A stretch of DNA of 54,276 nucleotides from a bacterium (lineage in GTDB: Bacteria; Patescibacteriota; Patescibacteriia; Patescibacteriales; VMTK01): contig JAUYAT010000034.1 of the NCBI GenBank assembly GCA_030693295.1, forward strand, positions 1 to 54,276, read 5' to 3'. The position numbers and the translations under genes were made by a program. The notes beneath the pieces were generated by a model. That model was not told the DNA's origin, searched no databases, and saw only the letters and a program-made list of their open reading frames with translations. This document shows, one piece after another, positions 29,887-47,171 of the stretch (positions are counted from its first letter, which is position 1; every line of letters begins with the position of its first letter).

Positions 29887-30064
29887 GATATTAAATTAAA
29901 AAATATTTACTCTCATATTTTAACATATTGATTTTAACTTGACAAATGCAAATTAAAATTAATATTACATCATAAGAAAATAGATAAAGCAAATATAAAA
30001 TTTATAAAAAAACACTAAGTTTCCGATCGGAAATTTAGTGCCTAAATTATATTATAACAATTAT

Positions 30065-31063
30065 TTAATCCTTGAAGCCGGCGGCAATCACTGTAATTTT
30101 GATCGCTCCCTCGGGAACACTCTTATCATAAATCGCGCCAAAAATAATTTTTGCGTCTGGATCGGCGGAGGCGGTAATAATCTTTGCCGCTTCATTAATC
30201 TCCGAAAGAGTAAGGTCGACTCCGCCGGCAGCTGCAAAAAGGATGCCCTGCGCGCCATCAATAGAAATATCGAGCAATGGAGAGCTGATCGCTTTCTTGG
30301 CGGCCTCAACCGCGCGTGTGTCTCCTGTGGCCTGTCCGATCCCTATAATCGCCAGGCCTGCTTCGGCCATAATGGTTCGGATGTCGGCAAAATCAACATT
30401 AATGATTCCTGGTTTAAGAATAAGTTCGGAAATTCCTTGAATCGCGTTTTTTAATACATCGTCACACAAAGCAAAAGTATTTTTGAGGGTAGTATTTTTA
30501 TTGCTCAAGGCAAGGAGCCGGTTATTGGGAATCACAATAACGGTATCTACTGCATTAATAAGCCGTTCAAGCCCGTCTTCAGCTATTCTTGCGCGTTGCG
30601 CTCCCTCAAACGAAAAGGGTTTGGTGACCACCGCGATACTTAAAGACCCCTGGTTTTTTGCGGTTTCCGCAATAATTGGCGAGGCGCCGGTGCCGGTTCC
30701 CCCGCCTAATCCGCAGGTTATAAACACTAAATCCGCCCCTTTCAGGGCATCCTGGATTTCGCTTTTAGTTCCTTTGGCGGCTCGACAACCAATTTCGGGG
30801 TTCATCCCCGCGCCCAATCCCTTGGTAAAATTTTTGCCAATATGTATTTTTTTGTCCGCCTGGTTGCGGTGAAGATCCTGCATATCGCAATTTACCGCAA
30901 TAAAATCAACTCCGCTAACGCCGGAGTTAATCATGTGATCAATCGCATTGCCCCCTGAGCCGCCGACGCCCACCACTTTGATATTGGCCCCGAATCGCAT
31001 TTCGGGATTCAACGCCTCGCGAGCGCCGGAATTATTTACTTCAGCTTTTGTCGCAGGAGTCAT
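30065..31063 (-). CDS. ftsZ: FtsZ homologue lacking C-terminal linker and peptide
   Basis: VGVGGSGGNA, GLGAG, GGGTGTG and INVDFAD motifs; ends at VIAAGFKD. Confidence 0.9.
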   Translation of the reverse strand: MTPATKAEVNNSGAREALNPEMRFGANIKVVGVGGSGGNAIDHMINSGVSGVDFIAVNCDMQDLHRNQADKKIHIGKNFTKGLGAGMNPEIGCRAAKGTKSEIQDALKGADLVFITCGLGGGTGTGASPIIAETAKNQGSLSIAVVTKPFSFEGAQRARIAEDGLERLINAVDTVIVIPNNRLLALSNKNTTLKNTFALCDDVLKNAIQGISELILKPGIINVDFADIRTIMAEAGLAIIGIGQATGDTRAVEAAKKAISSPLLDISIDGAQGILFAAAGGVDLTLSEINEAAKIITASADPDAKIIFGAIYDKSVPEGAIKITVIAAGFKD

Positions 31064-31085
31064 AAAATTCCAAGTGAATTATCAC

Positions 31086-31403
31086 TTATTTTCTTTTGGC
31101 GCGTGATTTTGGCGACTCTAATTTTGCAATCCTTTTTTGCAATTTTACATTTTCCTTCTCAAGCTCGCTTTCTTTATATTTAGTGTTCAGGTAAGAGTCC
31201 GTCTCCCACCAATTGATGCCGATTTGTTGGGCTTTGTCAACGGAAGCAATAAGCAGTCGTATCTTAATCGTCAAAAGCTCAACATCAGCTAATTTAATCT
31301 GAATATCTCCCGCAATGACAATGCCCTTATCCAAAACGCGCTCTAAAATATCGGCTAAGTTTGTCGATTGAATGGAATGGACTATTTGTTGGTTATTGCT
31401 CAT
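31086..31403 (-). CDS. gvpJ: gas vesicle protein GvpJ
   Basis: LADILERVLDKGIVIAGDI...ELLTIKIRLLIASVDKA...GINWW. Confidence 0.9.
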   Translation of the reverse strand: MSNNQQIVHSIQSTNLADILERVLDKGIVIAGDIQIKLADVELLTIKIRLLIASVDKAQQIGINWWETDSYLNTKYKESELEKENVKLQKRIAKLESPKSRAKRK

Positions 31404-31414
31404 AATTTTTATTT

Positions 31415-31496
31415 ACCCCGTTAGAAAATTTATTTTTGATGAATCTTTAGAGAATAATTTTTCAGGAAGTAATGAATGTTGATTTTCTAACGGGGT
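31415..31496. repeat. 82-bp element with ACCCCGTTAGA/TCTAACGGGGT terminal inverted repeats
   Basis: Same termini at 17897-17978, 32059-32140 and 34470-34547. Confidence 0.75.
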
Positions 31497-32078
31497 TTAC
31501 ATTAAATTCCCTAATGGTCCGAGGTCTAAATTTAATTCTTCGTCCTCTAATCCAAATATGGCTTTCATCTCTTCAATTTTTTTATCTAAGGCCTTGAAAG
31601 TCAGGCCGAGTTTTTGAATTTCAACCTCAGAAAGATTGCCTTTTGTGATTCTACGTTTCGCTTCTCTATACATCAAGTCCTTTATCAGCTTCACGAGGGT
31701 TAAGACTAATTGGGCGATTCCTTTTTCGGCTTTTTCCGGATTAGCGGCTTCAATTATTCCGGGTATGTTCCTTTCCGCTCTCTCTATTTCTTGCTCCAAA
31801 CTTCTGATATACTCCTCGTCTTCTTTACTAACCGCTCCACCGAAAGAATCGTCTCCCCTTCGCAAAACTTCTGCTCGACTAATGGAAGTAATGAGAAGTT
31901 TAAGGCCGATAAATATAAGATCTACATCCGCAACTCTAATAACCACCTCACCGTCCAAAACCGCTCCTTTTTCTAAAACTTTATCTAAAGCATCTATTAA
32001 AGTAACCCTTTCCTCTATGGGCGGTCTTTCTGAAGTCGCAATATTTGCTAATGTTTTTACCCCGTTAGAAATTTTCAT
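31497..32078 (-). CDS. gvpK: GvpK with N-terminal GvpA-like domain
   Basis: LIDALDKVLEKG N-domain; KGIAQLVLTLVKL...LNLDLGPLG C-domain. Confidence 0.88.
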   Translation of the reverse strand: MKISNGVKTLANIATSERPPIEERVTLIDALDKVLEKGAVLDGEVVIRVADVDLIFIGLKLLITSISRAEVLRRGDDSFGGAVSKEDEEYIRSLEQEIERAERNIPGIIEAANPEKAEKGIAQLVLTLVKLIKDLMYREAKRRITKGNLSEVEIQKLGLTFKALDKKIEEMKAIFGLEDEELNLDLGPLGNLM

Positions 32079-32163
32079 AATTTTTCTCTTATTACACTCG
32101 CTATAAATCTTATCTGCCGAGTATTGATTTCTAATGGGGTGAATTTTGGGGGTGCTTCATAAA

Positions 32164-32997
32164 TTACACAAAGTTATAAGGAGGCCATGGGCCGCTTGAT
32201 TCAAAAATAAAACCTATTTTTTCATATTCGGCCCGCAACTTTTGCATCTCCTTTTGGAACTTATCAACCTTTTCTTTTTTTACAAGGAATGCCCCGTTAA
32301 AAATCATCGGATCGTTTCTTTGAGTTAATTCTTTTCCGAGAATTCTGTTTTCTTTTAATTCTTCAGCTAACCCCTTGAGCTTTTCAAGAAAAAGAGGGAT
32401 GTAATTATTATTTATAGAATTTTTCGCCTCTCTTTTAACCATTTCATTTATTTCCTCTTCTAAAAAATATTGTCTGCCGGCTGGCAAAGATTTAATTTCT
32501 TCAAGTTTGCTTTGGATCATTGGTGATTTCTTTTTAATTTCATTTTCAAGAAGTTGGGATTTCAAATAGATTTTCACCGATCGTTCCTCTTTTCCCTGCA
32601 AGCCGTCAAGAAGGCCTTTAAACTTTAAGTAATCTTTCTTTAAAGAACCTATTAAGCTCCCTTTATCCTTAAATATCGTCCCAAATTTCATGGGAATAAT
32701 CAGCCCATCAGAGTTATTCATCGCTGTCTCAATTGCCTTTTCATGCATCAGGGCTTTATCTTTTATCCATTCCAGATCCTCTCGCGCCCTTCTTTGAATT
32801 TCTTCTGACCCGAATTCCTTTAAAAAAACCTCGCTCACTACCGCCTCAATATCCTTATAAGGAATGGAGAAAACTTTTTCCCCGCCAATACTTTCACCAG
32901 TGTCTTTATTTGATAGTTTTTTTATTTTTACGGATGGGCTCGCCTCGCTGAAGCTTCGGCGAAGCGGGCAGATCCCATAAAGATAAAGTCCTTTCAT
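32164..32997 (-). CDS. gvpL: GvpL/GvpF family protein
   Basis: LYLYGI, IPMKFGTIF, IFNGAFLV and SGPWPPYNF motifs. Confidence 0.88.
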   Translation of the reverse strand: MKGLYLYGICPLRRSFSEASPSVKIKKLSNKDTGESIGGEKVFSIPYKDIEAVVSEVFLKEFGSEEIQRRAREDLEWIKDKALMHEKAIETAMNNSDGLIIPMKFGTIFKDKGSLIGSLKKDYLKFKGLLDGLQGKEERSVKIYLKSQLLENEIKKKSPMIQSKLEEIKSLPAGRQYFLEEEINEMVKREAKNSINNNYIPLFLEKLKGLAEELKENRILGKELTQRNDPMIFNGAFLVKKEKVDKFQKEMQKLRAEYEKIGFIFESSGPWPPYNFV

Positions 32998-33048
32998 AAT
33001 TTCAGAATAAATTCTTTTTATAATTTCAGATTTTAATGAAAAAAGCTC

Positions 33049-33384
33049 TTACACTTCTGGATTCAGAGCCGTATCAACTCTTTTACGAAGATCAGTTCGT
33101 TTATAACTAATAATCTTCCCGCTCTCGTCAACTCGCACCTCATAAGCGCCCAAAACATCCATCCCGTCAGGAATCGATGCCTTCTCAATTACTTCTATAG
33201 TCGCTATCAACTCATTGCCCTCTTTTTTAAAGCCAATCGCCGACGGAGATTTAAACCCGGTTAAGTCGGCGAGTTCTTTTTTTGCTTTTTCCAGTATGTC
33301 TTTTGTAGCCATATTTTTGATCTTTTCACCCCGTTGATCCGCCAGCTGGCGGATTATTTGGGATTGATTTAGCGTTTTTTTCAT
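33049..33384 (-). CDS. gvpO: gas vesicle protein GvpO (start may be 33312)
   Basis: IEVIEKASIPDGMDVLGAYEVRVD...SYKR. Confidence 0.85.
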   Translation of the reverse strand: MKKTLNQSQIIRQLADQRGEKIKNMATKDILEKAKKELADLTGFKSPSAIGFKKEGNELIATIEVIEKASIPDGMDVLGAYEVRVDESGKIISYKRTDLRKRVDTALNPEV

Positions 33385-33487
33385 ATTTTTAATTTTAACT
33401 CCCTTATTGGACTTTTTCGACCTTTTGATTCCTTTTGTTTTCAATTGAACCATAGATTTAGGATTATTTTTTATATTTTAATATCCA

Positions 33488-33706
33488 TCACGCGCGCCTC
33501 TCTTTTGCTTTCCGTATAGCCTCTAATCTCTTTAGTATCTCCTCCTCTCGTTTGATTAATTCTTCTTCGCTGATTTGATCTGTTTCAAAAAGGGTGCGGA
33601 CATTAAGAAGCTCGTCTTTCAGTTTTGATTCATCAGTAACTTCCCGCTCGGCTATTTCCTGCAGTTTCTCAGCTAGCCAGATTAAACCATCATCAATAAG
33701 AAACAT
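33488..33706 (-). CDS. gvpG: gas vesicle protein GvpG
   Basis: WLAEKLQEIAERE...ISEEELIKREEEILKRL. Confidence 0.85.
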   Translation of the reverse strand: MFLIDDGLIWLAEKLQEIAEREVTDESKLKDELLNVRTLFETDQISEEELIKREEEILKRLEAIRKAKERRA

Positions 33707-33709
33707 AAG

Positions 33710-34504
33710 TTAATTGAGGCTTATTTTTAAACCAACAAAGTTATACAAAGGAAAGGGGCCGGAACAGTTAAGCTTGGTGTTGGGAAAACTTTGAGCAAGT
33801 ATTCCTGCCCTTCGGCTAAATTCATCTTCTCCTCCTTTTTTTATTAAAAACGCGGCATTCAAAATCATATTTTCTCCAAAGAGTTGTTGCTCCTTAAGTT
33901 CTTCAGCTAAATCGCCGATGGCCTTGATTATATTTTGAGCTTCATCTTGCTTTCTTTTCTCTAATAATTTTCCAATAAATTCTCCCACGGCTATTTTCCG
34001 TTGATAGGTTAAGTGTGTTTTTTTTAACCGCTGAAGTTCTGGATTCTTGGCAATTTCTTGAAAAATAAATTGCATATTCGGCCAAAACGCTTTCAACCCC
34101 ACTTCTGTCTTGCCTTTAAATTTCTGGAGAAGTTCCTCAAATTCAGCCCTTCTTTCTTTAAGAATCTTCTTTATTTGATCTTCAGTATTAGCAATGTTGC
34201 TAAAGCTAAAAGGAAGAACATCATAATGCTTCATCACTTCCTCAATTGGTTTCTGGTGTGCAATAATGTGCTCTCGCCATAAAGGATAGTGATCGCATGA
34301 CGTATCGCTCACTATACAGGAAAGGTTTCCTTGATTAACCGCATAAGCGGCATTTCCTTCTAGGCCAACGAGATTTCCGCCCGAGGCGGATCCGCCTTTG
34401 GCGGAAAATCGATCTTTAGGAACTTTGCCTTTGATAATGCAGTGAAGATATTTTCCTGTTATGTTACTCACCCCGTTAGACATTTTTTGTTGTTTTTCTA
34501 ACAT
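33710..34504 (-). CDS. gvpF: GvpF/GvpL family protein
   Basis: YLHCII, AHQ, VLPFSF, ILNAAFLI and GPFPLYNFV motifs; directly before gvpG. Confidence 0.85.
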   Translation of the reverse strand: MLEKQQKMSNGVSNITGKYLHCIIKGKVPKDRFSAKGGSASGGNLVGLEGNAAYAVNQGNLSCIVSDTSCDHYPLWREHIIAHQKPIEEVMKHYDVLPFSFSNIANTEDQIKKILKERRAEFEELLQKFKGKTEVGLKAFWPNMQFIFQEIAKNPELQRLKKTHLTYQRKIAVGEFIGKLLEKRKQDEAQNIIKAIGDLAEELKEQQLFGENMILNAAFLIKKGGEDEFSRRAGILAQSFPNTKLNCSGPFPLYNFVGLKISLN

Positions 34505-34570
34505 AATAACTTCTCGAACTATATGTAATTAAGATGTCTAACGGGGCTCATAATACTTTTTTTCTTTCTT

Positions 34571-34912
34571 TTATTCATTTGTCTGTTCAGCAGCCCAAAT
34601 TTGCTTTAGGGCAACGACCAATCCGGCGGCTGAAACAAAAGCAATGAAACTGTTCAAGGCCGGAGTAATGACGGGCGTCAATTTACCAAACTCTAAGCCG
34701 GCCACTCCCACCACCAGCAAGGTAATTACCGCAACTAAAAAGGGGGTGCTTTCCTTTTCTTTGATGTTCAGGAATCCCACGATAAGACCAAAAACAAAAA
34801 GGAGAACGGCTAAATTCGGTACAGCCACAAATCCAGCCAATATCGCTAAGACAATCCCGCCAAGAAACGCCCAATGACCAATGCGTGTTAAGCCCATATT
34901 TTTTAATTCCAT
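34571..34912 (-). CDS. small 4-TM membrane protein
   Basis: Hydrophobic ORF, GLIVGFLNI..KE motif. Confidence 0.7.
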   Translation of the reverse strand: MELKNMGLTRIGHWAFLGGIVLAILAGFVAVPNLAVLLFVFGLIVGFLNIKEKESTPFLVAVITLLVVGVAGLEFGKLTPVITPALNSFIAFVSAAGLVVALKQIWAAEQTNE

Positions 34913-34954
34913 ATTTTTTAAATTCCTTTCAAAGTTTTTATTTATAGTCGACCT

Positions 34955-35893
34955 TTAATTGGAGAATAATTCTCCGGCTAAATTTTTTAAGTTTTTGATT
35001 CCTCTAATTTCTTCGGGGTGTAAAATAATTTCTGAAATGTTAAAATTTGCAAATTTTTTCTTGATTTCGTTGATGTATCTTTCCTGATTTTTCCTTCTTG
35101 ATTGGCAAAAATCGCATTTATTTTCGGGGAAGATATTGTTAATAATGATGTGGCTTGCCGGGATGCGCGTTTTTTCTAAATCCTTTACTAAATCTTCTGT
35201 TTCCAGAACTCCCATTGCTTCGGCGATGGTAACGACTATGAATTCTGTTTTGGCCGGATCCTGAAGAAGGCTCCTTACTTTTTTAACTGTTTTTTTCATC
35301 TCCAGAAGGAACTCATCGGCTTTTTCAATTTTTTTCTTCCCAGAGAATCGCTCTGTCATATAGTGATATTTCCAGCGCAAGCTGGCTAAAAATTTAATCC
35401 AGTTATCCAGAAGTTCGGGAAGAGCTAATAGCCGCAAAGTATGCCCCGTAGGCGCGGTATCAACTAAGTATAAGTCGTATTCTTTGCTATCCATAAAATC
35501 GGTTATTTTTTTCAGCCCCATAACCTCGTCTAATCCCGGGATATCAAGCTCAAACATTTCTCCCGCTTCTTGATCGGATAAATATGTGCCCTGATTTAAA
35601 ATATCTAAAATATCCTCGCCGTATTCTTTTTTAAATTCTTCAAGAACTTTCTTGGCATCAATTTCCATCGCCCACAGATTGGCAACGCCAGTAATTTTTA
35701 CGGGCTCATTGGACAATTTTTGTTCCAAACTATCTGCCAATGACGGCGCCGGATCAGTGGTAAAAATTAAGGTTTTGCGAGTCTTGGCAAAATGAACCGC
35801 TAACGCGCTCGCAATTGTTGTCTTGCCCACGCCGCCTTTTCCTCCGATTAAGATAAACTGCAAATTTTTATGCGTCAGATCGCTTAATGACAT
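34955..35893 (-). CDS. ArsA/Get3-family ATPase
   Basis: GGKGGVGKTT, TDPAPSL, DTAPTGHT and CxxC motifs. Confidence 0.9.
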   Translation of the reverse strand: MSLSDLTHKNLQFILIGGKGGVGKTTIASALAVHFAKTRKTLIFTTDPAPSLADSLEQKLSNEPVKITGVANLWAMEIDAKKVLEEFKKEYGEDILDILNQGTYLSDQEAGEMFELDIPGLDEVMGLKKITDFMDSKEYDLYLVDTAPTGHTLRLLALPELLDNWIKFLASLRWKYHYMTERFSGKKKIEKADEFLLEMKKTVKKVRSLLQDPAKTEFIVVTIAEAMGVLETEDLVKDLEKTRIPASHIIINNIFPENKCDFCQSRRKNQERYINEIKKKFANFNISEIILHPEEIRGIKNLKNLAGELFSN

Positions 35894-35911
35894 AAACGTT
35901 ATTATTCTTTA

Positions 35912-37021
35912 TTATTCTTTTTGCTGTTTCTTTGATTCATCCACTATGGCCGCGATTAAAGCGCCTTTAGTAACGCTGTGCAACGGTTGCGAGGCGAGCC
36001 GTATTTCTCCTAATTCAACAGGCATGGGGAATCTCTGCAGGGCTTCCTGAAACCGTTTGAGAAACCCTGTTGGCTTGGCAGTGCCTCCGGAAAGTATTAT
36101 TGTCAAAGGCCTTTCCAGATGTATAGCTGATTTCTCAAGCTCGGTTTTGAGATGTCCAACTACATAATCAAGCAAGATATCATAATAGATGGATAGCGCC
36201 TGTTCCATTCTTGAAAGATTTTCTCTTTTATCTAAATCCAAACAGGACTCTTTCCAACCGGTGACAATACTTACTGGCTCGCCCACGGCTCTGGCCGCCT
36301 GTTTATCTATCCAGTCTCCTCCGCGAGCAACACTGAAGGATAGAACAGGAATTGATAGGTTAGCCAAACAGACATTCACCATTCCGCCGCCGAAAGAAAA
36401 AGCCAGCCCGGTAAAGTTTTCTTCAGCCAGTTCAGAAAATACCACTGCCAAACCTTCATTGATCGGCTTCGGGGCGTAGCCAAGACTTGAGAGAAAACCG
36501 TCAATAATGCGCTGATGATAAAGAACGTCAAAATCAGCATCAATCGGCTGGGCCGGAACTGAATAATAAACTGTTTCACCCGCCTGATGATGAGAACCGA
36601 CAGCGCTGGCAATCAGCAGCTTAATAATGGGAAGAGCGTCTTTTTCTTTGGGACTAATTACCCCCTGCTCTAACGGCCGCCTGACATTGCGCTGAAACAA
36701 ATTTGCGAAGCGCAGCGCCTCATTACCAACAACATAAAATTGGTCTCCATTTCGGATATACTTCACCTCGTCTCTGGCAAATACTTCTTTAATGTAATCA
36801 CTGGCTGGCAGGTCAAAAAAGGCATCTCGTTCTATTCTAAACACGACCTCATTGCCGATTTTTTCAGCAGCATAGATAAAGGCGGTGCCAACATCTAATC
36901 CCTTTCCGATCTGCAATGTTTGTGCCGCTTGAATTTTCTTGGCTTGTTTGGGAACAAGTATTTTGGCGCGAGATTTCATTCTGGTTTGGTGTTTTGATTT
37001 TGCTTTTGATTTTTTATTCAT
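35912..37021 (-). CDS. actin-like ATPase
   Basis: GLDVGT (phosphate 1), INEGLA, SFGGGMVN (phosphate 2), LSGGT (adenosine). Confidence 0.75.
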   Translation of the reverse strand: MNKKSKAKSKHQTRMKSRAKILVPKQAKKIQAAQTLQIGKGLDVGTAFIYAAEKIGNEVVFRIERDAFFDLPASDYIKEVFARDEVKYIRNGDQFYVVGNEALRFANLFQRNVRRPLEQGVISPKEKDALPIIKLLIASAVGSHHQAGETVYYSVPAQPIDADFDVLYHQRIIDGFLSSLGYAPKPINEGLAVVFSELAEENFTGLAFSFGGGMVNVCLANLSIPVLSFSVARGGDWIDKQAARAVGEPVSIVTGWKESCLDLDKRENLSRMEQALSIYYDILLDYVVGHLKTELEKSAIHLERPLTIILSGGTAKPTGFLKRFQEALQRFPMPVELGEIRLASQPLHSVTKGALIAAIVDESKKQQKE

Positions 37022-37054
37022 ATTTTGTTATACGAATTATTTAATCTGTAATTT

Positions 37055-37438
37055 TCAACTTTTTGCGGTTGTCAGTCGTTTAAGGCTTTTTTGTATCGAG
37101 CGAGCGTCTGCCACTTCAGTGGTTGGGCCCTTGCCTAAATTATGCTCAGTGAAACGGGGCTCTCCGGCCATAAATTCTCTACCTGCCCCGTGGCATCCCG
37201 AAGGGATTGCTTCGGGGTTGATAAAATGAATTTTATGCTCCAATAACGACCTTCCACTGGCGGTTAAAATGAATACATTATTGGCGATCTTTTTAATTAA
37301 TTTCTGGTTTAGTAATTCCCTGGAAACCAAAGAGGCATAATCAGAACTCAAGCCCGTCTCTTTGCTAATTATCCGCATAGAGCAACGGCCTCCTAATTGA
37401 TAGATAATATTTAATATTTCCAATTCTCTTGAAGTCAT
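37055..37438 (-). CDS. winged-helix protein
   Basis: ELEILNIIYQLGG...ISKETGLSSDYA...LTASGR; paralogue of 42368-42670. Confidence 0.65.
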   Translation of the reverse strand: MTSRELEILNIIYQLGGRCSMRIISKETGLSSDYASLVSRELLNQKLIKKIANNVFILTASGRSLLEHKIHFINPEAIPSGCHGAGREFMAGEPRFTEHNLGKGPTTEVADARSIQKSLKRLTTAKS

Positions 37439-37758
37439 ACTGATTGAGATTTGAGCGCATCGCTCATTTCCTTATCTAATTCTTTTAATTTATCTTTCAC
37501 CTTGCTAAGCTCGTTTCTTCTATTTTCTAATTGCTTTTTCTTTTCAATGAGATTCAACCAAATCTTTTCCATCTTGACTATTTCTTCATCAACCGCCGCT
37601 GTTTCCCGCTCTATGGAAGCCAATTTTTGAACAAATTCTTCGGCAAATTTATTACTTGCCCCGTTAGAAAAATTTTCTCTAACTTTATTAACCTGCACCA
37701 CCTGATTTCTGGCGGCCTTGAGCGTTTCAATGGTTTTCGGATCAAATTGTGGATTCAT
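37435..37758 (-). CDS. coiled-coil hypothetical protein
   Basis: ORF overlapping its neighbour, heptad-rich. Confidence 0.6.
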   Translation of the reverse strand: MNPQFDPKTIETLKAARNQVVQVNKVRENFSNGASNKFAEEFVQKLASIERETAAVDEEIVKMEKIWLNLIEKKKQLENRRNELSKVKDKLKELDKEMSDALKSQSV

Positions 37759-37763
37759 ATTGA

Positions 37764-38966: not shown

Positions 38967-41230
38967 GCCAGGGGTTTATTTTTATTTATCTTGTTAGAAA
39001 TTTCATTTCCAACGGGATTTATTGCTTCTTCAAAATGCTTCGCGGTTATTTTAAAATTATTATCTGGTTGAACGAAATTCTCTCTCACCGCGGACATGGC
39101 GGCCTTTTTGCAAATCAGCTCTATGTCTGCGCCCGTCAGGCCTTCTGTTAGTTTGGCAAATTTCTTTAAGCTAACAGCGCGATCTAACGGCTTATCTTTC
39201 GTGTGAATACTGAATATGGCGCATCGGCACTCTTCGCTTGGCTTGGGGACTTCAAGCAGGAAATCAAATCTTCCTGCGCGAAGCAAAGCCGGATCAACCA
39301 TGTCTAATTTATTTGTCGCTCCTAAAACTACTACGGCTTTTAATTCCTCAATGCCGTCTAACTCCGCCAGAAACTGGCTGACTACTCTTTCCGTAACATG
39401 CGAGTCCGCGCCGCTTCCGCGTTTCGCCACTAAACTGTCTATCTCATCAAAAAAAACTATGCAAGGGGAAGCCAGCTTGGCCTTTTTAAACACTTCCCGG
39501 ATTCCCTTTTCCGATTCGCCGATATATTTTGAAAAAAGCTCCGGTCCTTTAATAGAAATGAAATTTACCCCCAGTTCAGTGGCGACGGCCTTGGCCAAAA
39601 GCGTTTTCCCGCATCCGGGCGGCCCATAGAGCATTATTCCTTTAGACGGCTTGAGTTTTACATAACCCAGCGCCTCGCTGTATTTTAACGGCCATTCAAT
39701 CACTTCCTTAAGCGTTTGTTTAATACACTCAAGCCCCCCTACATCTTCCCATTTGACGCTGGGAATCTCTGAAAAAACTTCGCGCAGAGCCGAGGGCTCC
39801 ACCTCTTTCAGGGCTTCTCTAAAATGTTCGCCGGTAACCTCTATTTTACGGAGCTTCTCATACGGAATGTACCACTCTTTTTCTCCGCCAGAGGCGGATC
39901 CGCCTTGGGCGGAAAACTCAATCTCTGGCATGATTTCACGCAACGCCGACATTGCCGCTTCTCGGCAGAGTGCCTCAAGATCAGCTCCGACAAATCCGTG
40001 AGTGATTTCAGCCAGCTTGTCCAAGTCAACCCCATCTGCTAAGGGCATGCCCCTTGTATGTATTTCCAGTATTGCTTTTCTGGCGTTTCTGTCTGGAATG
40101 CCAATCACAATTTCCCGATCAAATCGTCCCGGCCTGCGCAGGGCCGGATCAAGCGTATTGGGAATATTAGTTGCTCCAATCACTATTAACTGGCCGCGCG
40201 ATTCCAAACCGTCCATCAAGGCCAAAAGTTGCGCCACCACTCGTCTTTCCACCTGCTTCTCGCCGCCCATTTCTTCGCGCTTGGGCGCAATCGCGTCAAT
40301 TTCATCAATAAAAAGTATGGCCGGGGCGTTGGCTTTTGCTTCTTCAAATATTTCTCGCAGCCGGCCCTCTGACTCGCCATAAAACTTTCCCATTATTTCC
40401 GGTCCCGAAATGTGGGTAAAATAGGCATCGGTCTCATTCGCCACTGCCCGGGCAATTAATGTCTTGCCGCATCCCGGCGATCCGTGTAAAAGCACTCCCT
40501 TGGGCGGATCGATTCCTAATCTCTCAAAAAGCTCGGGGTGTTTTAGCGGAAGTTCAATCATTTCTCTAATTCTCCGTATTTCTTTTCCTAATCCGCCAAT
40601 GTCTTCATAGGTTATACCAATCCCTTGTTTTTCTTTGGCCATGCCCTTTAGCTTTATAAAAGTAAAGGGTTTTATCAAAACTACTTTGGCTGGACTCGCC
40701 TCGCTCGCCTCGCTGAAGCTTTGGCGAAGCGGGCTGAAGCTTTGGCGAAGCGGGTCGGTATCTTCTACTAAAAAATCCTGGGCCCTTGTTCCAAAAAGCG
40801 TGGCTCTTATTTTACTGCCTTTTATTACCGGGGTTCCGTCAAGTATCTCGGCCAAATATTGGGCATCCTCTTTTTTGAATGAAGCGCCGGTATTTAAGGG
40901 GGATAGGACGAGTACTCGCGCTTCTTCGTAAGAAACCTTCTGAATTTCCACCTTTTCATCCAAACCAATTTTCAAATTCTCTCTGGCAATGCCATCTATT
41001 TGAATAATGCCTTTTCCTCGATCCTCTGGATAAGCGGGCATCATCCTTGCTACAGCTTCTCTTCCCTTTTTCCCCTCTGATTTTTGCGGTGTCAATCTGA
41101 TAATATCTCCTGTATCGGCCTGAATTTTTGAAAAATACTCGGGGTCAATTCTGGCAATGGCTCTGCCCACATCTTTGCTTTGGGCTTCGGTTACTTTAAG
41201 GATTAGTGATCCGTTATTCGGTGACTTCAT
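38963..41230 (-). CDS. CDC48/p97-family AAA ATPase
   Basis: N-domain DVGRAIARID; two AAA modules (GSPGCGKT, GPPGCGKT) and RPGRFDRE. Confidence 0.93.
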   Translation of the reverse strand: MKSPNNGSLILKVTEAQSKDVGRAIARIDPEYFSKIQADTGDIIRLTPQKSEGKKGREAVARMMPAYPEDRGKGIIQIDGIARENLKIGLDEKVEIQKVSYEEARVLVLSPLNTGASFKKEDAQYLAEILDGTPVIKGSKIRATLFGTRAQDFLVEDTDPLRQSFSPLRQSFSEASEASPAKVVLIKPFTFIKLKGMAKEKQGIGITYEDIGGLGKEIRRIREMIELPLKHPELFERLGIDPPKGVLLHGSPGCGKTLIARAVANETDAYFTHISGPEIMGKFYGESEGRLREIFEEAKANAPAILFIDEIDAIAPKREEMGGEKQVERRVVAQLLALMDGLESRGQLIVIGATNIPNTLDPALRRPGRFDREIVIGIPDRNARKAILEIHTRGMPLADGVDLDKLAEITHGFVGADLEALCREAAMSALREIMPEIEFSAQGGSASGGEKEWYIPYEKLRKIEVTGEHFREALKEVEPSALREVFSEIPSVKWEDVGGLECIKQTLKEVIEWPLKYSEALGYVKLKPSKGIMLYGPPGCGKTLLAKAVATELGVNFISIKGPELFSKYIGESEKGIREVFKKAKLASPCIVFFDEIDSLVAKRGSGADSHVTERVVSQFLAELDGIEELKAVVVLGATNKLDMVDPALLRAGRFDFLLEVPKPSEECRCAIFSIHTKDKPLDRAVSLKKFAKLTEGLTGADIELICKKAAMSAVRENFVQPDNNFKITAKHFEEAINPVGNEISNKINKNKPLA

Positions 41231-41916
41231 TTTGTTTTGGTTAATTTCAATTCCAATATCCCATTTTTGAAATTCATCTCCCGAGATTCAAAATCAACTT
41301 TGGCCGGCAGCAAAATCTCTTTGGCGTATTTTCGGTCATTGCTCCCCGCTTCGCCCGCGAAGCGAGGCGAGTCCGCCTCAAATAAAAGAATATCCCCGCC
41401 TGCCATCGGCTTTGCCTCAGGCGAATGGCGGGCAGACTTTTTCAAATCGACTTTAATGCTTTTTTCGTCAATACCCGGGAGTTCGGCGATTATCAAAATA
41501 TGATCTTTCTCGTCAAACACATCAACGATTGGTTCTCTCGTCTCTGATACCTTCGGACCTTCTTTAGTTTTTTTAATATTCCCGAATGGTTCAACTTTTG
41601 TTCTTTGTCCCAGACCAGTCCGAACAGTAAAACCATATACTCCATGAATATCTTGGCGTCCCCCAAATCCTTTTCCGCCAAAGGCGGATCCGCCTCGGGC
41701 GGAAATCCGGCCGCTTCTTTTCAGTTCACCGCCGACTTCCTCGGCCCGTTCCGCTAAATCAATAAATTTCCCCAATCCTTTAAGCAAACCGCCGACAAAA
41801 GGTATATCGTCAAGCGATATTTCATCCTTGCCCTCCGACTTGTCCTCCGTAGCTTTAGCGTAGGAGGAAGCCTTGGCGAAGGAGGGTTTTCCCTTTTTTT
41901 GTTCTTCTTTTTTCAT
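41227..41916 (-). CDS. Hsp20/alpha-crystallin (GvpH-like) protein
   Basis: REPIVDVFDE, IAELPGI and FKNGILEL motifs. Confidence 0.85.
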   Translation of the reverse strand: MKKEEQKKGKPSFAKASSYAKATEDKSEGKDEISLDDIPFVGGLLKGLGKFIDLAERAEEVGGELKRSGRISARGGSAFGGKGFGGRQDIHGVYGFTVRTGLGQRTKVEPFGNIKKTKEGPKVSETREPIVDVFDEKDHILIIAELPGIDEKSIKVDLKKSARHSPEAKPMAGGDILLFEADSPRFAGEAGSNDRKYAKEILLPAKVDFESREMNFKNGILELKLTKTK

Positions 41917-42368
41917 AAAATTTTGAAAGTTCCCAAAAAATCCTTGAAGAAGAATTTTCTTCCTTTCTTTATCTCTGCTTTTGCTTTTCTTATTTTCGGC
42001 GCGGCTGGCTTTATGCCCCTTGTCTTGCTCCTTGATTTCTTAATGGGCTGGCTCTTTTTTCTTCTTGTCTTTGGAACCGAAGATTCGACTATCAATGGAT
42101 GTCTCTTTTCTTCAACAAACCCCTTGCCCTGGCACAGCAAACAATAGAGATTGGCGCCTGCTTTCTTGCCTCTGCCCCCGCATTCCTTACATATATTATA
42201 CGGCTGGTTTACAGTAACACGGCCACTGCCTTTGCAGACAATGCAAGACAGACGCTCCGCGCCCGGCTGTACTCCCTTGCCTTGGCAAAAAGCGCATGGG
42301 AATTTTTTAGTTTTTTCCGCCAAGGGCGGATCCGCCTCTGGCGGAGAATATTTTTTTTTCATTTTCAT
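41913..42368 (-). CDS. DnaJ-type zinc-finger protein
   Basis: Four CxxCxGxG repeats and a basic tail. Confidence 0.75.
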   Translation of the reverse strand: MKMKKKYSPPEADPPLAEKTKKFPCAFCQGKGVQPGAERLSCIVCKGSGRVTVNQPYNICKECGGRGKKAGANLYCLLCQGKGFVEEKRHPLIVESSVPKTRRKKSQPIKKSRSKTRGIKPAAPKIRKAKAEIKKGRKFFFKDFLGTFKIL

Positions 42369-42670
42369 TAATACTCTAAAATAAATTTCCCATCTCGGTC
42401 TTTCCCAAGTCCAAACTTTGGCATTTTCTTAGAAACCACAATCTTACTGGGTTTATTGACCTTTCTTTTTGCCGCCTCAAGTTTGCCTTTTCCGCGAAAC
42501 ACGGCCAGTTTTGAATGCAGAAAGTCAATATAATCATGCCGGCCGAGATTATTGCAAATAAGCCTGGCATAATCGGTGCTGATCCTCGCCTCCCTCGCAA
42601 TAGTGTCAATGGATGCCTCTCCGCCCCAATCCCAAAGAATTTCTAATACTTTAAGTTCTGTTCCTGACAT
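42368..42670 (-). CDS. winged-helix protein
   Basis: ELKVLEILWDWGG...IAREARISTDYA. Confidence 0.65.
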   Translation of the reverse strand: MSGTELKVLEILWDWGGEASIDTIAREARISTDYARLICNNLGRHDYIDFLHSKLAVFRGKGKLEAAKRKVNKPSKIVVSKKMPKFGLGKDRDGKFILEY

Positions 42671-42671
42671 G

Positions 42672-42983
42672 TTAATAGTCTAAAACGGTATGGCTGCCCG
42701 ATTTTGAATAGGTTTCTCTAATTTTACTCAATCCCTTGCTCCCAGCAGTGGCAATTTTAAGAAGTTTAGCCATGCCCGTATTAATTACGGTTAAATTTTT
42801 ATCGATCTGCTTCCCTTTTTTTTGCAATCTTATTTTTTCTTTCTCAAGCCGGTCTCTCTTATTTTGACGCATATACAGGTCTAAAAAAGCCGACTTTGAT
42901 GAGTGAGGAATAGACCTTAGCCCGGTTGAACCCGCGCTTTTTAAGTCGTGGATCCCCGAGAGATTAGCGTTTATTTTTTCCAT
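42672..42983 (-). CDS. GvpV-like coiled-coil protein
   Basis: AFLDLYM...RDRLEKE; directly after gvpN. Confidence 0.5.
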   Translation of the reverse strand: MEKINANLSGIHDLKSAGSTGLRSIPHSSKSAFLDLYMRQNKRDRLEKEKIRLQKKGKQIDKNLTVINTGMAKLLKIATAGSKGLSKIRETYSKSGSHTVLDY

Positions 42984-43001
42984 AGATTTGTGTGTAATTA
43001 A

Positions 43002-43931
43002 TTAACAAAGTTTGGTGATTAATTCTCCTACTATTTTTCTCACCTTATTATGGTGATCTTGCGAGCCCAATCGCGTTGTTTCCGATGCCAATATATCCTG
43101 GGCTAACTGGCGGAACAAGCGGCTGGAAGCCAACACTGCGCCTCCGTTAGTCTTGAGGGACTTTGCCAGCATTATTGAGCCGCGAACAGTTGGCGCGAAT
43201 TCATATTCCCCGGAATCGCGAAGCGCTCGGACGATATTGACAATTTTCTCGGTATCTTTTCGATCTAGACCGGATTTGGCTTGAGTGATGGCAATTTCCG
43301 TATTCTTGTCAAAGTGCCTTAAATCCATAGTTACCATTCTATCGCGCAACGCGTCTTGAGCTTTATTTGTCCCCGCGTATTCTTCAGGATTTGAGGTGAA
43401 AATAGCCACAAACTGCGGATGAGCCTTAAGATAATAAGATTCCCGCCCTTGTCTGGCCATCGGCAAATCCATCACCCCTTCTTGCAAGATGGAAAGCAAG
43501 GTGTTGTTTGCTTCCGGCCGGGATCGAGTGAACTCGTCATAAATAAGGGTAAAGCCGTTTTTTACCGCGATAGTCAGACGATTATCCATCCACTGTTTTG
43601 AGAAGTTCTCTTCTTTCTTAAGGACGCTCTGAATAAAATTGTCTCTTAAATATTTGTAACGGTAGCCATGCTCTCCGCCAATAAGATCAGAGGTAGAATA
43701 TTCCTCATCGCCATGAATCAACACTGCCGGACGGCCAATCTTTTGCGCCAAGTGCAAAGCCAAGGTGGTTTTTCCTGTTCCTGAAGCGCCTCTTAAATGC
43801 ACGGGAAAACCCGCCTTAATATAATTCAACGCCCGCTTGCTAATATCCTTGATATACGAAGTCTCCACAAAGCCAGCCACTGGCCGTGGCTCAATAATTG
43901 CTTGTTCTTCATCTGATGATAAATAAGACAT
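43002..43931 (-). CDS. gvpN: gas vesicle AAA ATPase GvpN
   Basis: GFPVHLRGASGTGKTT, YDEFTRSRPEANN, FTSNPEEYAG and QDALRDR motifs. Confidence 0.95.
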   Translation of the reverse strand: MSYLSSDEEQAIIEPRPVAGFVETSYIKDISKRALNYIKAGFPVHLRGASGTGKTTLALHLAQKIGRPAVLIHGDEEYSTSDLIGGEHGYRYKYLRDNFIQSVLKKEENFSKQWMDNRLTIAVKNGFTLIYDEFTRSRPEANNTLLSILQEGVMDLPMARQGRESYYLKAHPQFVAIFTSNPEEYAGTNKAQDALRDRMVTMDLRHFDKNTEIAITQAKSGLDRKDTEKIVNIVRALRDSGEYEFAPTVRGSIMLAKSLKTNGGAVLASSRLFRQLAQDILASETTRLGSQDHHNKVRKIVGELITKLC

Positions 43932-44052
43932 ATTGGTAATTCAATTAAAATTAATGTTCAAGTCGGAATCTTGCCAGAATCTTGCGCGATTCCGAATATT
44001 TCGACCCGCCTGCCATCGCTATGCTCAGGCATTGCGGGCAGGCCTTTAGAAT

Positions 44053-44715
44053 TTATTTAGCTTTATGCTTTTTTGCTTTTTTTGCTGCTTTTTTTGGTTC
44101 CTCGGCTTCTTCTCCCGCCGCAATCGCTCTCTCCTGCTTCCTTAATACCCCCCAGTTTGCGCGCGCTTCTTTTCGCTCTTCTGCGTAATCGCCTAACAAA
44201 TCCGCTACATGCTTTTGGATAACAGGTATTTGCGACTCTATATCTTTCATCATAGTCTTGAAATCAACCATACGGGTTTGTTCGCTTTTAGCCAGCAAAT
44301 CCTTCAAGTCCTTTGCTATTTCTTTCATTTCCTTGTCAAAGCGACTAAGCAACTCTTTCACATCAGCCGCTCTTTCTTTGCTTTCTCCGCTAAATCTTAC
44401 AATAAGTTTCCTGGAATCTTCTAATACATCAGCTACTCTTGCTTGAATGTCCTTTATCATTTTACTGAAATCTGCCATTCTGTCCTTTTCGCTCTTATCC
44501 AAAAAATTCTTCAGTTCCTGCGCCACTTCCTTTAATTCTTTGTCAAATCGCGAAAGAAGCTCGCGCGTGTCCGCTTTATTATCTATTAATTCCTTATCAA
44601 GTCGCGAAAGAAGCTCGCGCGTGTCCGCTTTATTATCTCTAACGAATTGCAAGCGATCTTTTGTGGAAGTTTTAATATCGCTTACTAAACTTTTCATTTC
44701 TTGTGCGTATGACAT
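44053..44715 (-). CDS. GvpC-like helical repeat protein
   Basis: All-helical amphipathic repeats (ELLSRFDKE x3); lies between gvpA and gvpN. Confidence 0.6.
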   Translation of the reverse strand: MSYAQEMKSLVSDIKTSTKDRLQFVRDNKADTRELLSRLDKELIDNKADTRELLSRFDKELKEVAQELKNFLDKSEKDRMADFSKMIKDIQARVADVLEDSRKLIVRFSGESKERAADVKELLSRFDKEMKEIAKDLKDLLAKSEQTRMVDFKTMMKDIESQIPVIQKHVADLLGDYAEERKEARANWGVLRKQERAIAAGEEAEEPKKAAKKAKKHKAK

Positions 44716-44818
44716 ATTTTTTTGTTAAATTGATTAATGTTGATTAGTTAATGCTAATTGTTTTGTCGACCTTTAGTTATTTCTTTAGTTATTTATAAAA
44801 ATTTATTTGTTTGAATTG

Positions 44819-45091
44819 TTAAACCTTCAAAAACCCCGCCTCTCCTAAATACTTCTCATACTCCGGAAAGAAATCCAACGCCACTTTCTTTAATTCTAAA
44901 TGTTCAAGATAGTATTTTCTGATCTTCGTAAGTTGTTCCGCTCGCTTTCTCGCCGCAGTCCTCCGCCAGCTGGCGGACTGCGCGACGGAGCGGAAATATT
45001 GTTCTTTTTCGCGTTTCTCTTTTTTTAATTTCCTTTCTTCATCCCATATTTCTCTCATTGTTCTTATTGTTTTTGTTTTGATAATAGGCAT
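44819..45091 (-). CDS. hypothetical basic protein
   Basis: Co-oriented ORF in the operon. Confidence 0.45.
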   Translation of the reverse strand: MPIIKTKTIRTMREIWDEERKLKKEKREKEQYFRSVAQSASWRRTAARKRAEQLTKIRKYYLEHLELKKVALDFFPEYEKYLGEAGFLKV

Positions 45092-45216
45092 TTGAATGAT
45101 TTTATTTAGGCTCTGCTGATTTTCACCGATTATTCACCTCTTGAGAGGGGCTAAGGATGGATTATTGAAAAATTAACAGATTGAATGCGTTAATTCGTTA
45201 ATAAATAATTCCTTTT

Positions 45217-45564
45217 CTATATCGCTCCCAATCCATAACAACTCGCGCAAGGAAGATCGCTTCCCGGTTCTCTTCCGTCGCCTTTGCACTTAGCGCATCT
45301 TTTCTCCCCCCTGATCTTCGTTACCATGCCTTTCCCGCCGCATACGGCGCAAGGCATTCGGTGGTTAAAGAAAATGCCGCTTCCTTTGCAATAGGGACAA
45401 ATTTCCACCGGCTCCACCACTTGAACCGCGCCCCTGCCATTGCAAACTTGGCAGTTGGAAAGTTTTGACGGAACCTCAAACGGATCCTTGCCCTTTCCTT
45501 TGCAAAAAGCGCAAGTGATTGTTCGGTAGTTGCAAGCAGATTTTTTGGTTGTCTTTTTTGCCAT
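45217..45564 (-). CDS. DnaJ-type zinc-finger protein
   Basis: Six CxxCxGxG repeats. Confidence 0.78.
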   Translation of the reverse strand: MAKKTTKKSACNYRTITCAFCKGKGKDPFEVPSKLSNCQVCNGRGAVQVVEPVEICPYCKGSGIFFNHRMPCAVCGGKGMVTKIRGEKRCAKCKGDGREPGSDLPCASCYGLGAI

Positions 45565-45574
45565 AAATTTTAAT

Positions 45575-46147
45575 TTATAAATCCTTTTTTTTATCAAGCA
45601 GCGGCGATATCTTCTTCCACTCTTCCGCCGCCGCTTCCCTTTCCTTTTTAAATGCTTCCAGCATCTTATAGACTTCGCTCTGCATAGTTGCCAGCTCGGC
45701 CCTAACTTGCTCTCCGGTATTTGCTTCTCTTGATGCCTGATCCTGCCGTATGCGGACTAAAGTTTTTTTGAAATCTGCCAAGCGAAGTTCCTCGCCTCTT
45801 TTAAGCAGCCCTTTTAAATGTTCTACCACTCGGGTCTCTTCCTCTCTGAAATCAGCCAGCATTTTTTTCACATTTTCTTCTCTTTTATGCTGGGTCAATA
45901 AAATATCCCGCATCATCGCGCTAAAATCTTTTTTGCGAAGCGACTCGGATTTTGCTAAAACCTCCCGAAGATTATCACTCATCTCCTCCCTATTTTTCCT
46001 AAATCCGTTCAGCGCCTTATGAGTGTCTTCCACAATCTCTCCGACTACTCTCACCCGCGCGTCATACGAGACAATAATGTCCTTTGCTAAATCTCTTAGG
46101 TCTCGCTTCTCGGTCTCGCCTGATTCTTTTTTCATTAATTCTTTCAT
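45575..46147 (-). CDS. helical protein, second GvpC-like candidate
   Basis: LAKSESLRKKDFSAMMRDI resembles LAKSEQTRMVDFKTMMKDI of 44053-44715. Confidence 0.6.
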   Translation of the reverse strand: MKELMKKESGETEKRDLRDLAKDIIVSYDARVRVVGEIVEDTHKALNGFRKNREEMSDNLREVLAKSESLRKKDFSAMMRDILLTQHKREENVKKMLADFREEETRVVEHLKGLLKRGEELRLADFKKTLVRIRQDQASREANTGEQVRAELATMQSEVYKMLEAFKKEREAAAEEWKKISPLLDKKKDL

Positions 46148-46358
46148 AAATATCTCTCAAAAGTTCAAAATGCAAAAATTAAAATGTAAAATGGCAAATT
46201 AAAATTATAAAATTATTCTGATTAGATTCATTTTTATATTTTAATTTTTGCATTTATATTGTCTAAGGCACGCTCTCGATTTTACCCATATGGGTTGTGG
46301 GAGGACTTTATAGTGCTTCTACCAATCTAAAGGGCGCCCTATCCAATATGCTCTAATA

Positions 46359-46565
46359 TTAAGCGGCGCTGGCAGTCAAACCGACTGCTTCAGCGTACTT
46401 CAACCAGGTCTCAACTGAAGCAATCACTACTCGGGCTTCAATCGCCAGAAGCTCAATTCCCACTAACGAAATTCTTACCCAAGCGTCAATCACCACGCCC
46501 TTGTCAAGAATGCGGTCAATCACTTCCACCAAGCTGGAGCTGGACATTGATTTTTCTACGGCCAT
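46359..46565 (-). CDS. gvpA: major gas vesicle shell protein GvpA
   Basis: [55 protein letters not shown]. Confidence 0.97.

Positions 46566-47036: not shown

Positions 47037-47171
<135 letters not shown>

Follow-up and report, generated by a model that had tools for sequence, protein, structure and literature searches.

The window analysed here is one entire contig of 54,276 bp (C37) from the 62-contig, 1,056,697-bp assembly of a groundwater bacterium of the Patescibacteria, or candidate phyla radiation (CPR), and it carries a cluster of gas-vesicle (gvp) genes on an island of 17,965 bp (29961-47925). The island sits in a spacer of about 70 bp between an S41 peptidase gene (28609-29886) and a PEGA-domain gene whose true start lies at 47966. 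Its 25 genes, 1.7% of the 1-Mb genome, are a paralogue of FtsZ, 23 further genes on the minus strand and, beyond a 1.0-kb leader, a divergent XRE-type regulator with its stop codon at the right junction. From 46565 to 30065, 24 co-oriented and intact open reading frames (ORFs) extend across 16.5 kb of the minus strand, to which all gene positions below refer unless another strand is named. An earlier note on this DNA had described a block of 22 co-oriented genes at 30065-46565; the block and the co-orientation stand, but the count is 24, and the cluster reaches further, to the regulator and the leader. For comparison, G000 denotes the window's own genome, G001 one of the same genus, G002 and G004 two of the same family, and G076 and G290 further fetched CPR genomes, while L-numbers denote fetched loci.

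All gvp families named in the earlier note, namely gvpA, N, J, K, G, O and three gvpF/L genes, score above the curated cut-offs of Pfam or NCBIfam, and the cluster is complete in that a candidate is present for each core family. gvpA (46359-46565) encodes a shell protein of 68 residues (Pfam Gas_vesicle PF00741, 62 bits against a cut-off of 25). Over its full length this protein is like those of two entries titled "Gas vesicle structural protein" that were solved by cryo-electron microscopy or tomography, PDB 8gbs (60 of 68 residues identical, 88%) and 7r1c (48 of 64), which we take to be from Anabaena flos-aquae and Bacillus megaterium, respectively. The AAA+ ATPase gene gvpN (43002-43931) matches the equivalog TIGR02640 at 320.4 bits (cut-off 266.8). 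The three GvpL_GvpF-domain genes comprise one fused to a J-domain (37764-38966; 162 bits, with DnaJ at 32 bits and the HPD motif at residue 335) and paralogues 2 (33710-34504; 170 bits) and 3 (32164-32997; 180 bits), accompanied by gvpG (33488-33706; Pfam GvpG, 52 bits) and gvpO (33049-33453; Pfam GvpO, 65 bits). A gvpJ-gvpK fusion (31497-32078; Gas_vesicle 46 bits, GvpK 90 bits) and a second minor protein of the GvpA fold, GvpJ/M/S-like (31086-31403; Gas_vesicle 64 bits, with NCBIfam GvpJ and GvpM matches weak and below cut-off), complete the core, so that all three Gas_vesicle-domain genes of the genome lie inside the island. In Halobacterium the essential genes are A, F, G, J, K, L, M and O.

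The GvpC-like proteins of the earlier note did not survive the family searches: no ORF matches the GvpC family in Pfam or NCBIfam, in which respect the cluster differs from the two solved systems. In the usual gvpC position stand instead two paralogous helical proteins. One of these, p190 (45575-46147), is conserved next to gvpA, with identities of 52-88% in CPR and 25-43% in other phyla, and is a candidate outer-surface protein analogous to GvpC. Its paralogue CC220 (44053-44715) is predicted to be a coiled coil or amphipathic helix with an 18-residue tandem repeat (direct repeat D11 at 44532-44638) and has weak coiled-coil or apolipoprotein-like matches. An identification of either as GvpC itself was rejected, PDB searches having given weak apolipoprotein-like and HU-like matches only. 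GvpC is not universal among gvp clusters.

A set of chaperone-type genes accompanies the core. The largest encodes a Cdc48-type double-ring AAA+ ATPase of 755 residues (38963-41230; TIGR01243, 893 bits against a cut-off of 802). Beside it lies an Hsp20-like gene (41227-41916) that stays below the cut-offs of both the NCBIfam archaeal Hsp20 model (118.6 bits, cut-off 140) and Pfam HSP20 (19 bits) and is conserved in gvp clusters of many phyla. Two DnaJ-type zinc-finger proteins carry six CxxCxGxG motifs (protein 1, 45217-45597; Pfam DnaJ_CXXCXGXG, 40.6 bits) and four such motifs with a basic tail (protein 2, 41913-42368; 37 bits). Furthermore, an ATPase of the ArsA/Get3 type is encoded at 34955-35893 (TIGR00345, 275.6 bits against 135). 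It is a single domain of 312 residues, as compared with two adjacent ArsA-like stretches, either a two-domain protein or two genes, in G002, G004, G076 and L164. Host DnaK is encoded by the same genome.

Six small ORFs of the cluster have no family. Conserved counterparts of p103 (42672-42983) were found by tblastn in CPR and other phyla, and p100 (42368-42670) matches a profile of p127, the partner of the actin-like gene described below, at E 9e-25. Counterparts of p107 (37435-37758) occur in L028, L157, L158 and L185, and p113 (34571-34912) matches only in the CPR-clade clusters G002, G004, G076 and L031, at 62-68% identity. The sole relative of the open frame p90 (44819-45091) lies in G290 and is 37% identical; L028 has no counterpart.

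The regulator (47548-47931, plus strand; Pfam HTH_3, 45.6 bits) is of the XRE helix-turn-helix (HTH) type and divergent from gvpA. An XRE gene lies upstream of gvpA in all eight loci of the CPR clade defined below (at 59-83% for full-length copies, with a partial one in L031) and in no non-CPR locus examined. In the leader, sequence, translation and a hairpin scan delineate an upstream ORF of 48 codons (47025-47171) that contains an (AG)19 tract (47086-47123) and leads into a terminator-like hairpin (47010-47036). The tract recurs at the same place with 14 units in L028, 11 in G290 and 26 in L029, and is absent in G002, G004 and G076. It is an attractive candidate for a slippage-controlled attenuator. 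Promoter and terminator scans lay barely above shuffled sequence (45 against 34.6 and 31 against 21.1, respectively) and were used for the leader hairpin only. Between the upstream ORF's terminator and gvpA, the leader also contains a 32-nt inverted repeat (46839-46962; 84% complementary, arms 60 nt apart), and just after gvpA lies a 24-nt hairpin (46168-46255) that could be an attenuator.

Setting and descent of the island

The supposition that the genome is patescibacterial holds. Its size is 1.06 Mb at 89.9% completeness and 2.3% contamination, the genomes listed in the phylum sample being mostly 0.6-1.5 Mb, and ribosomal protein uL30 (PF00327), which the same search found in 13 of 14 control genomes, was not found, an absence that an incomplete genome cannot prove. 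Of the eight organism names listed among the 120 best relatives of GvpN, six are CPR ("Patescibacteria group", "Candidatus Parcubacteria", "Candidatus Falkowbacteria"). In its Cdc48 and volactin-like stretches, same-family G002 is identical to locus L030, which is titled Candidatus Falkowbacteria. The island is flanked by genes for MurG, FtsW, MraY, NifS/NifU, CTP synthase (pyrG) and the S41 peptidase, and the same contig bears type IV pilus genes (PilB, C, M, N, O and a pilin-like protein). An archaeal origin, which the matches of the Cdc48, volactin-like and archaeal-type Hsp20 genes might bring to mind, was ruled out because these flanks are bacterial cell-wall and pilus genes and because many bacterial phyla share this accessory set. 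No RNA gene was found in the window either from Rfam at gathering thresholds or by a tRNA scan.

Presence and absence of the island between close relatives define its boundaries to the base. Contig C36 (14.6 kb) of G001, whose RpoB is 97.4% identical to that of G000, aligns to the window at 90-95% DNA identity and joins position 29960 directly to 47926; this genome, 91% complete, gave no GvpF/L match and one FtsZ match only. The earlier note had held that the island is no misassembly and had asked for the coverage at its junctions. In a possible source run, independent Logan contigs spanning 28892-34401 and 47132-48600 each bridge one junction, and from flank to island the depth stays level at about 27. 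In run X2, from another groundwater study, an empty-site contig at depth 293 joins 29945 to 47926 and skips 17,980 bp, and a filled contig of 7.8 kb at depth 33 leads from 29884 into the island at about 93-95% identity. Since the filled and empty forms coexist there, the island is polymorphic in a natural population. Among the studies whose runs hold the stretch, the two with the highest share (P1, P2) and one of small share (P4) are metagenomes of groundwater; those of the three remaining small-share holders come from drinking water, lake water and coal.

In the same family, the clusters of G002 and G004 occupy other sites, that of G002 on the same contig as rpoB, and in G004 the S41 and PEGA genes lie about 1.8 kb apart with no cluster between them. 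Because G001 is empty as well, the site was ancestrally empty and the island was gained there. A recombinase gene at 52211-53032 was considered as an island integrase and rejected, since it lies 4.3 kb outside the island and its stretch also aligns to the congener at 71%. The window holds further features outside the island. A second clean indel against G001, which joins 28640 to 26532, covers 26533-28639 and a 688-residue ORF (26534-28600) with no Pfam or NCBIfam match. The first 8,300 bp (1-8300) are low in GC (31-35%) and carry defence or mobile-type genes (Bro-N, a PLD-family nuclease, an AlwI-type restriction enzyme, an AAA_15/AbiEii-like ATPase and RhuM). Heptamer microsatellites of TAATTCG/TAATTCT units occur at gene ends (9865-9915 and 51668-51704).

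Seven palindromic inserts lie in frame within the island's genes between 32935 and 42347. Three belong to family D1 (32935-32971, 38295-38331 and 40700-40757) and four to family D3 (34373-34407, 39881-39915, 41671-41705 and 42313-42347). D1 is a 37-nt palindrome with copies in the window at 6749, 32935, 38295 and 40700/40721; genome-wide it has 35 copies on 23 contigs, and D3 has 17 copies on 13 contigs. The inserts reside in six genes, namely the three GvpF/L genes, Cdc48 (two inserts), the Hsp20-like gene and zinc-finger protein 2. At the six alignable sites each lengthens the protein by 10-20 residues, in alignment gaps that separate conserved blocks, and is absent from the orthologues in L028, G002, L031, G076, G290 and three non-CPR loci; the site in zinc-finger protein 2 gave no alignment. 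Such host-specific palindromes, inserted in frame, tie the island to the bin as a resident. The repeats that the earlier note saw as common to flanks and island bear this out in part: that at 6753 is a D1 copy, but that at 10015, a palindrome built alike, has diverged and that at 17897 shares only a 14-nt word. The palindromes are a sign of time since arrival, not of ancient residence, and the island is an acquired one that has been resident for long enough to pick up host repeats. The long residence proposed earlier is upheld insofar as the block is resident with host repeats, but the block was gained at this site and is missing from the congener and from the dominant strain of X2.

The cluster is scarce among CPR genomes. 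GvpF/L was found above cut-off in 2 of 40 relatives, both of one genus of the same family, in 2 of 400 genomes of the phylum and in 6 of 400 of the class, so that carriers make up about 1% of the sampled CPR genomes. In G002, G004, G076 and G290 two runs of gene order are kept, gvpA-p190-zinc finger-CC-gvpN-p103-p100-Hsp20-Cdc48 and gvpO-gvpF/L-gvpJK-gvpJ, and the middle part, with the J-domain GvpF/L, the actin gene, ArsA, p113, gvpF/L and gvpG, varies in order and content. Protein identities between the window and these four clusters are 40-70%, and 86-95% for GvpA. G004 also has, on a separate 2.4-kb contig (C24, L008), a second and more compact fragment with p100, J-domain GvpF/L and ArsA, 60-90% identical to the window genes.

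Beyond CPR, a wider survey took the best 80 GvpN loci of 594 relatives in species-representative genomes. These 80 include Bacteroidota, Planctomycetota, Nitrospirota, Desulfobacterota, Chloroflexota, Ignavibacteria, Elusimicrobia, Chlorobi and others. Since most of them also have Cdc48, Hsp20-like, ArsA, zinc-finger and p190 genes, the cluster type is widespread; its layout recurs in 75 loci outside the CPR clade, 13 of which have J-domain hits. Clusters with ArsA and Hsp20 genes have been described in, for example, Bacteroidetes/Chlorobi, cyanobacteria, a delta-proteobacterium and an acidobacterium (Castillo and Saier 2010; PMC2963123), and share with the window the core N, F/L, G, J, K and M as well as an internal ArsA-family ATPase and Hsp20. 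According to the same paper, their ArsA proteins have two domains and about 600-640 residues, unlike the single 312-residue domain here. Compared with them, the CPR branch adds the XRE regulator and p113, the window copy also p107 and a tail-less FtsZ, and the branch forms its own clade in trees. In the literature found, the ArsA and Hsp20 parts of gvp clusters are in print (PMC2963123), whereas no description of the Cdc48, J-domain and zinc-finger parts turned up.

A GvpN tree, as the earlier note had suggested, was built by quick maximum likelihood from 84 rows and contains a single CPR-only clade of eight rows that includes the window, with a support of 99.7 in the Shimodaira-Hasegawa-like approximate likelihood ratio test (SH-aLRT). 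A corresponding Cdc48 tree of 55 rows likewise has one CPR clade of eight rows (SH-aLRT 100). On the CPR side of both trees stand the window, L028, G002, G004, G076, G290 and the single-cell genome L031, which also carries the cluster, and L029 joins in the GvpN tree; other phyla fall mostly into clades of their own. The Cdc48 clade of CPR stands on a long stem (0.27) and branches deeply within, from which a long maintenance within CPR follows. One metagenome-assembled genome (MAG) titled Patescibacteria, L044, has a non-CPR-type cluster that groups with that of a Nitrospinota MAG (SH-aLRT 92), and its RpoB is 54% identical to that of G000; this may be a mis-binning or a separate acquisition.

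The closest cluster by far is that of L028, whose gvp proteins are 80-97% identical to those of the window (GvpN 92%, Cdc48 89%, ArsA 87%, actin 81%). Among the GvpN relatives listed, P0002 and P0007, from contigs of 50,971 and 36,047 bp, are 95-96% identical. GvpN is 66-68% identical in the other CPR clusters, and GvpN and Cdc48 of same-family G002, at 66-69%, are no closer than those of other classes. RpoB, which served as the yardstick because the genomes of L028, L031 and L029 yielded no pyrG, is identical to that of G000 at 78% in G002, about 85% in G004, 66% in G076, 64% in G290 and 58.6% in the genome of L028. A close cluster in a distant genome, together with the empty site, argues for a transfer of the island between distant CPR lineages, an argument limited by L028 being a 16.7-kb contig with island genes only, whose bin is unverifiable. 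Ratios of nonsynonymous to synonymous substitution (dN/dS; NG86) against L028 indicate purifying selection, which the earlier note had left to be tested. Of the 16 genes tested, 15 have a counterpart in L028, and their ratios range from 0.044 (gvpA) to 0.289 (p103) at dS 0.45-1.6, the zinc-finger 2 pair being saturated. Values are 0.121 for actin, 0.111 for ArsA and 0.078 for Cdc48, and 0.11-0.28 for p100 (0.112), p107 (0.196) and p127.

Actin-like and FtsZ genes of the cluster

The actin-like ATPase gene (35912-37021) encodes a full-length member of the volactin family, matching Pfam PF25216 at 314.3 bits (cut-off 35) over profile positions 3-321 of 321. Its AlphaFold (AF2) model, with a predicted local distance difference test (pLDDT) score of 87 and a predicted template-modelling (pTM) score of 0.83, has the actin fold, and the nucleotide-binding motifs are present (invariant D43-G45-T46, S209-G211-G213 and G312-G313, with T314). 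A fold search with the model returned MreB, BeeR and MamK as top matches (E about 1e-14), with the best template-modelling score for MamK (0.66/0.74), and a profile search against solved structures gave MamK as the best sequence match (5ljv/5jyg; E 3.6e-8). Directly upstream lies the gene of a small partner, p127 (37055-37438), with a weak winged-helix/HTH signal only.

The link of this gene to gvp clusters emerged from a survey that used an alignment of seven relatives to retrieve 80 metagenome loci and counted gvp genes on those of at least 5 kb. Core gvp genes accompany both actin-like genes whose products are at least 60% identical to the window's (2/2), 13 of the 14 at 48-60%, one of two at 43-48%, and none of 27 below 43%. 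A quick tree of 83 rows unites all 28 gvp-linked rows in one clade of 40 (SH-aLRT 93, not starred), which also comprises 11 short contigs and one 6.3-kb locus with only an Hsp20-like hit. At a distance of 150 nt or less upstream of the actin gene, 31 of the 44 gvp-clade loci have an ORF of the p100/p127 family, as against none of 43 others; of the 13 gvp-clade loci without it, seven have no room upstream. In the phylum sample, 3 of 401 genomes have strong actin-like matches, and two of the three are gvp carriers. By these comparisons the window's actin is placed in a subfamily found almost only in gvp clusters. A CPR genome without GvpF/L, G287, has a full-length volactin-family gene (C1:6609-7616, L120; 220 bits, 32% identical to the window's) and a second hit split over another contig.

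Volactin of Haloferax volcanii acts in the rod-to-disk shape change of that archaeon (Schiller et al. 2024, PMC10869688), and the paper makes no mention of gas vesicles. The window protein shares with it the Pfam family PF25216 and the conserved ATP-binding motifs of the actin fold, and differs in belonging to a separate bacterial clade, whose members go with gvp clusters and with a small partner gene upstream. In the literature on gas vesicles and actin-like proteins, no report of a gvp-actin link was found.

The final gene of the operon (30065-31063), 22 bp after the preceding one, encodes an FtsZ paralogue of 332 residues (TIGR00065, 396 bits against a cut-off of 295) with the tubulin/FtsZ GTPase domain, the C-domain and the GGGTGTG motif. 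It is 58.5% identical to the genome's canonical, full-length FtsZ on contig C26, whose presence rules out that the island gene is the housekeeping copy. The C26 protein continues for about 70 residues beyond the globular domain and ends in ...DDELGIPAFIRKKML. With its 332 residues the island protein stops just after the globular domain and is therefore without the linker and the conserved C-terminal peptide. This peptide of FtsZ binds membrane tethers. A search around the clusters of G002, G004, G076 and G290 found no counterpart of this FtsZ. At a CPR-type metagenome locus (L164:14124-14975), an FtsZ homologue 41% identical to the window's lies 2.3 kb downstream of a gvp cluster on the same strand, at the contig end.

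A close parallel to such an arrangement is the magnetosome, whose FtsZ-like protein is also without the C-terminal tail. The ftsZ-like gene is the last gene of the mamXY operon (PMC3847676), and the magnetosome island is likewise an organelle island with an actin-fold ATPase of its own, MamK, and an extra FtsZ that ends an operon. In contrast to the magnetosome, the organelle predicted here is protein-shelled and not membrane-bound, and its putative actin is only 16% identical to MamK and matches Pfam Volactin rather than MamK.

Proposed function and rival explanations

Taken together, the genes suggest the following mechanism. GvpA would form the ribbed shell, nucleated by GvpF/L, G, J, K, the M-like protein and O, and GvpN would drive its growth. 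The Cdc48-type unfoldase, the Hsp20-like, zinc-finger and J-domain proteins and ArsA, together with host DnaK, may keep the hydrophobic shell protein competent for assembly, and the ArsA/Get3 ATPase may hand over hydrophobic segments. The two helical paralogues are candidates for an outer brace that would take over the stiffening role of GvpC. Placing or partitioning the vesicles could fall to a dedicated actin-like filament and the small partner protein, perhaps with the tail-less FtsZ, and the XRE regulator and the (AG)n leader would set expression. One to a few small vesicles would then make the cell buoyant, and the lift probably matters most for cells fixed to a host or particle, or where the water below the water table is still.

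Stokes and buoyancy arithmetic with assumed densities bears on the last step. For a cell of radius 0.1-0.15 µm, neutral buoyancy takes about 10% of the cell volume, that is, 150-900 nm of a cylinder 45-60 nm wide. Bodies of radius 0.5-1 µm would rise 2-16 mm per day; since larger bodies rise faster, lift would matter more for attached cells, flocs and very still water. The buoyancy reading is plausible, though physically marginal for a free ultrasmall cell.

We judge it probable that the 17,965-bp block is a genuine and intact gvp island on the chromosome of a CPR bacterium from groundwater, that this island belongs to a CPR-specific branch of a widespread cluster type, was most likely gained here from another CPR bacterium and is under purifying selection, and that it would yield working vesicles. 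Several observations weigh against this conclusion. Vesicle formation is a prediction from the genes, gas vesicles are not known from imaged cells of the lineage, and no RNA run was found among the sequencing runs that contain the stretch. The usual marks of mobility were missing in that no tRNA lies in the window, no direct repeat or target-site duplication flanks the junctions and no integrase or transposase marks the island, and the bin of L028 is unverifiable, as noted. A free cell of radius 0.1-0.15 µm would float only 0.08-0.35 mm per day as compared with a Brownian displacement of 0.45-0.55 mm per day, so that simple buoyancy would be a weak benefit to it. The cluster is rare and polymorphic, as a dispensable passenger would be, the seven inserts inside six genes might impair them, and in G004 the counterpart of a gvpF/L gene (C78:28690-29475) has six stops, two TGA and four TAA. 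The last points, with the absence from the congener and from the dominant X2 strain, the carrier frequency of about 1% of CPR genomes, the specificity of the inserts to the window copy and the marginal benefit of buoyancy, would fit a silent or decaying recent passenger, whose genes are intact only by recency and make no vesicles in this host. Such a passenger is unlikely, as all 24 frames are open over 16.5 kb, dN/dS is 0.04-0.29 at dS 0.45-1.6 against L028 even for the small ORFs, the inserts keep frame at gaps between conserved blocks, and the long stem and deep branches of the CPR clade indicate long maintenance in CPR.

Vesicles may also be made for another use, such as lifting a host-epibiont pair or floc, reducing the cytoplasmic volume, or serving as a nanocompartment, structural or partitioned, that FtsZ and actin would link to division. 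The Stokes estimates favouring larger bodies, the type IV pilus genes for attachment on the same contig and the two cytoskeletal genes within the island would agree with this, but the analysis gave no evidence for a host, for attachment or for a non-buoyancy role, and to our knowledge all characterised gvp clusters give buoyancy; we regard this use as improbable. That the contig is mis-binned or chimeric and its gvp genes come from a non-CPR organism is hardly credible. The case of L044 demonstrates that mis-binning can occur in such data, but here the island lies 30 kb inside the contig between flanks that match the same-genus genome at 90-95%, independent contigs of equal depth cross both junctions, and the island holds repeat families found on 23 and 13 contigs of the bin; moreover, the G002 cluster is physically linked to rpoB and a single-cell genome carries the cluster.

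Starting from the island as an acquired and selected gvp cluster, a bolder proposal can be formulated, which is speculative and, in our estimate, rather doubtful. It holds that the island is a self-contained mobile organelle system with its own cytoskeleton, comprising a gvp-dedicated actin-like filament, its obligatory small partner and sometimes an extra FtsZ. As an analogue of the MamK/FtsZ-like system, this cytoskeleton would position or partition a single vesicle or a few of them in cells that hardly exceed these in width. The system would circulate in CPR, and slippage in (AG)n would switch it so that a subpopulation or a host-epibiont pair floats.

As a kind, the gas-vesicle cluster is known; its presence in CPR, its mobility, the selection on it and its cytoskeletal additions were not found in the literature searched, where no gvp genes assigned to CPR turned up, although mentions confined to supplementary tables would have been missed. 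The prevailing view of CPR bacteria is that of minimal, non-motile epibionts. A complete and selected organelle island among them would mean that some CPR invest in the control of their position and that this trait moves between CPR lineages, and it raises the physical question of what buoyancy brings to a cell of 0.2-0.3 µm. Clusters from such cells may also interest groups working on acoustic reporters, because ultrasmall cells can house only small vesicles. In conclusion, both the extra FtsZ and the actin subfamily that accompanies gvp genes, together with the gene of its partner, point to a so far undescribed cytoskeletal side of gas-vesicle biology, which would extend to many uncultured phyla beyond CPR.

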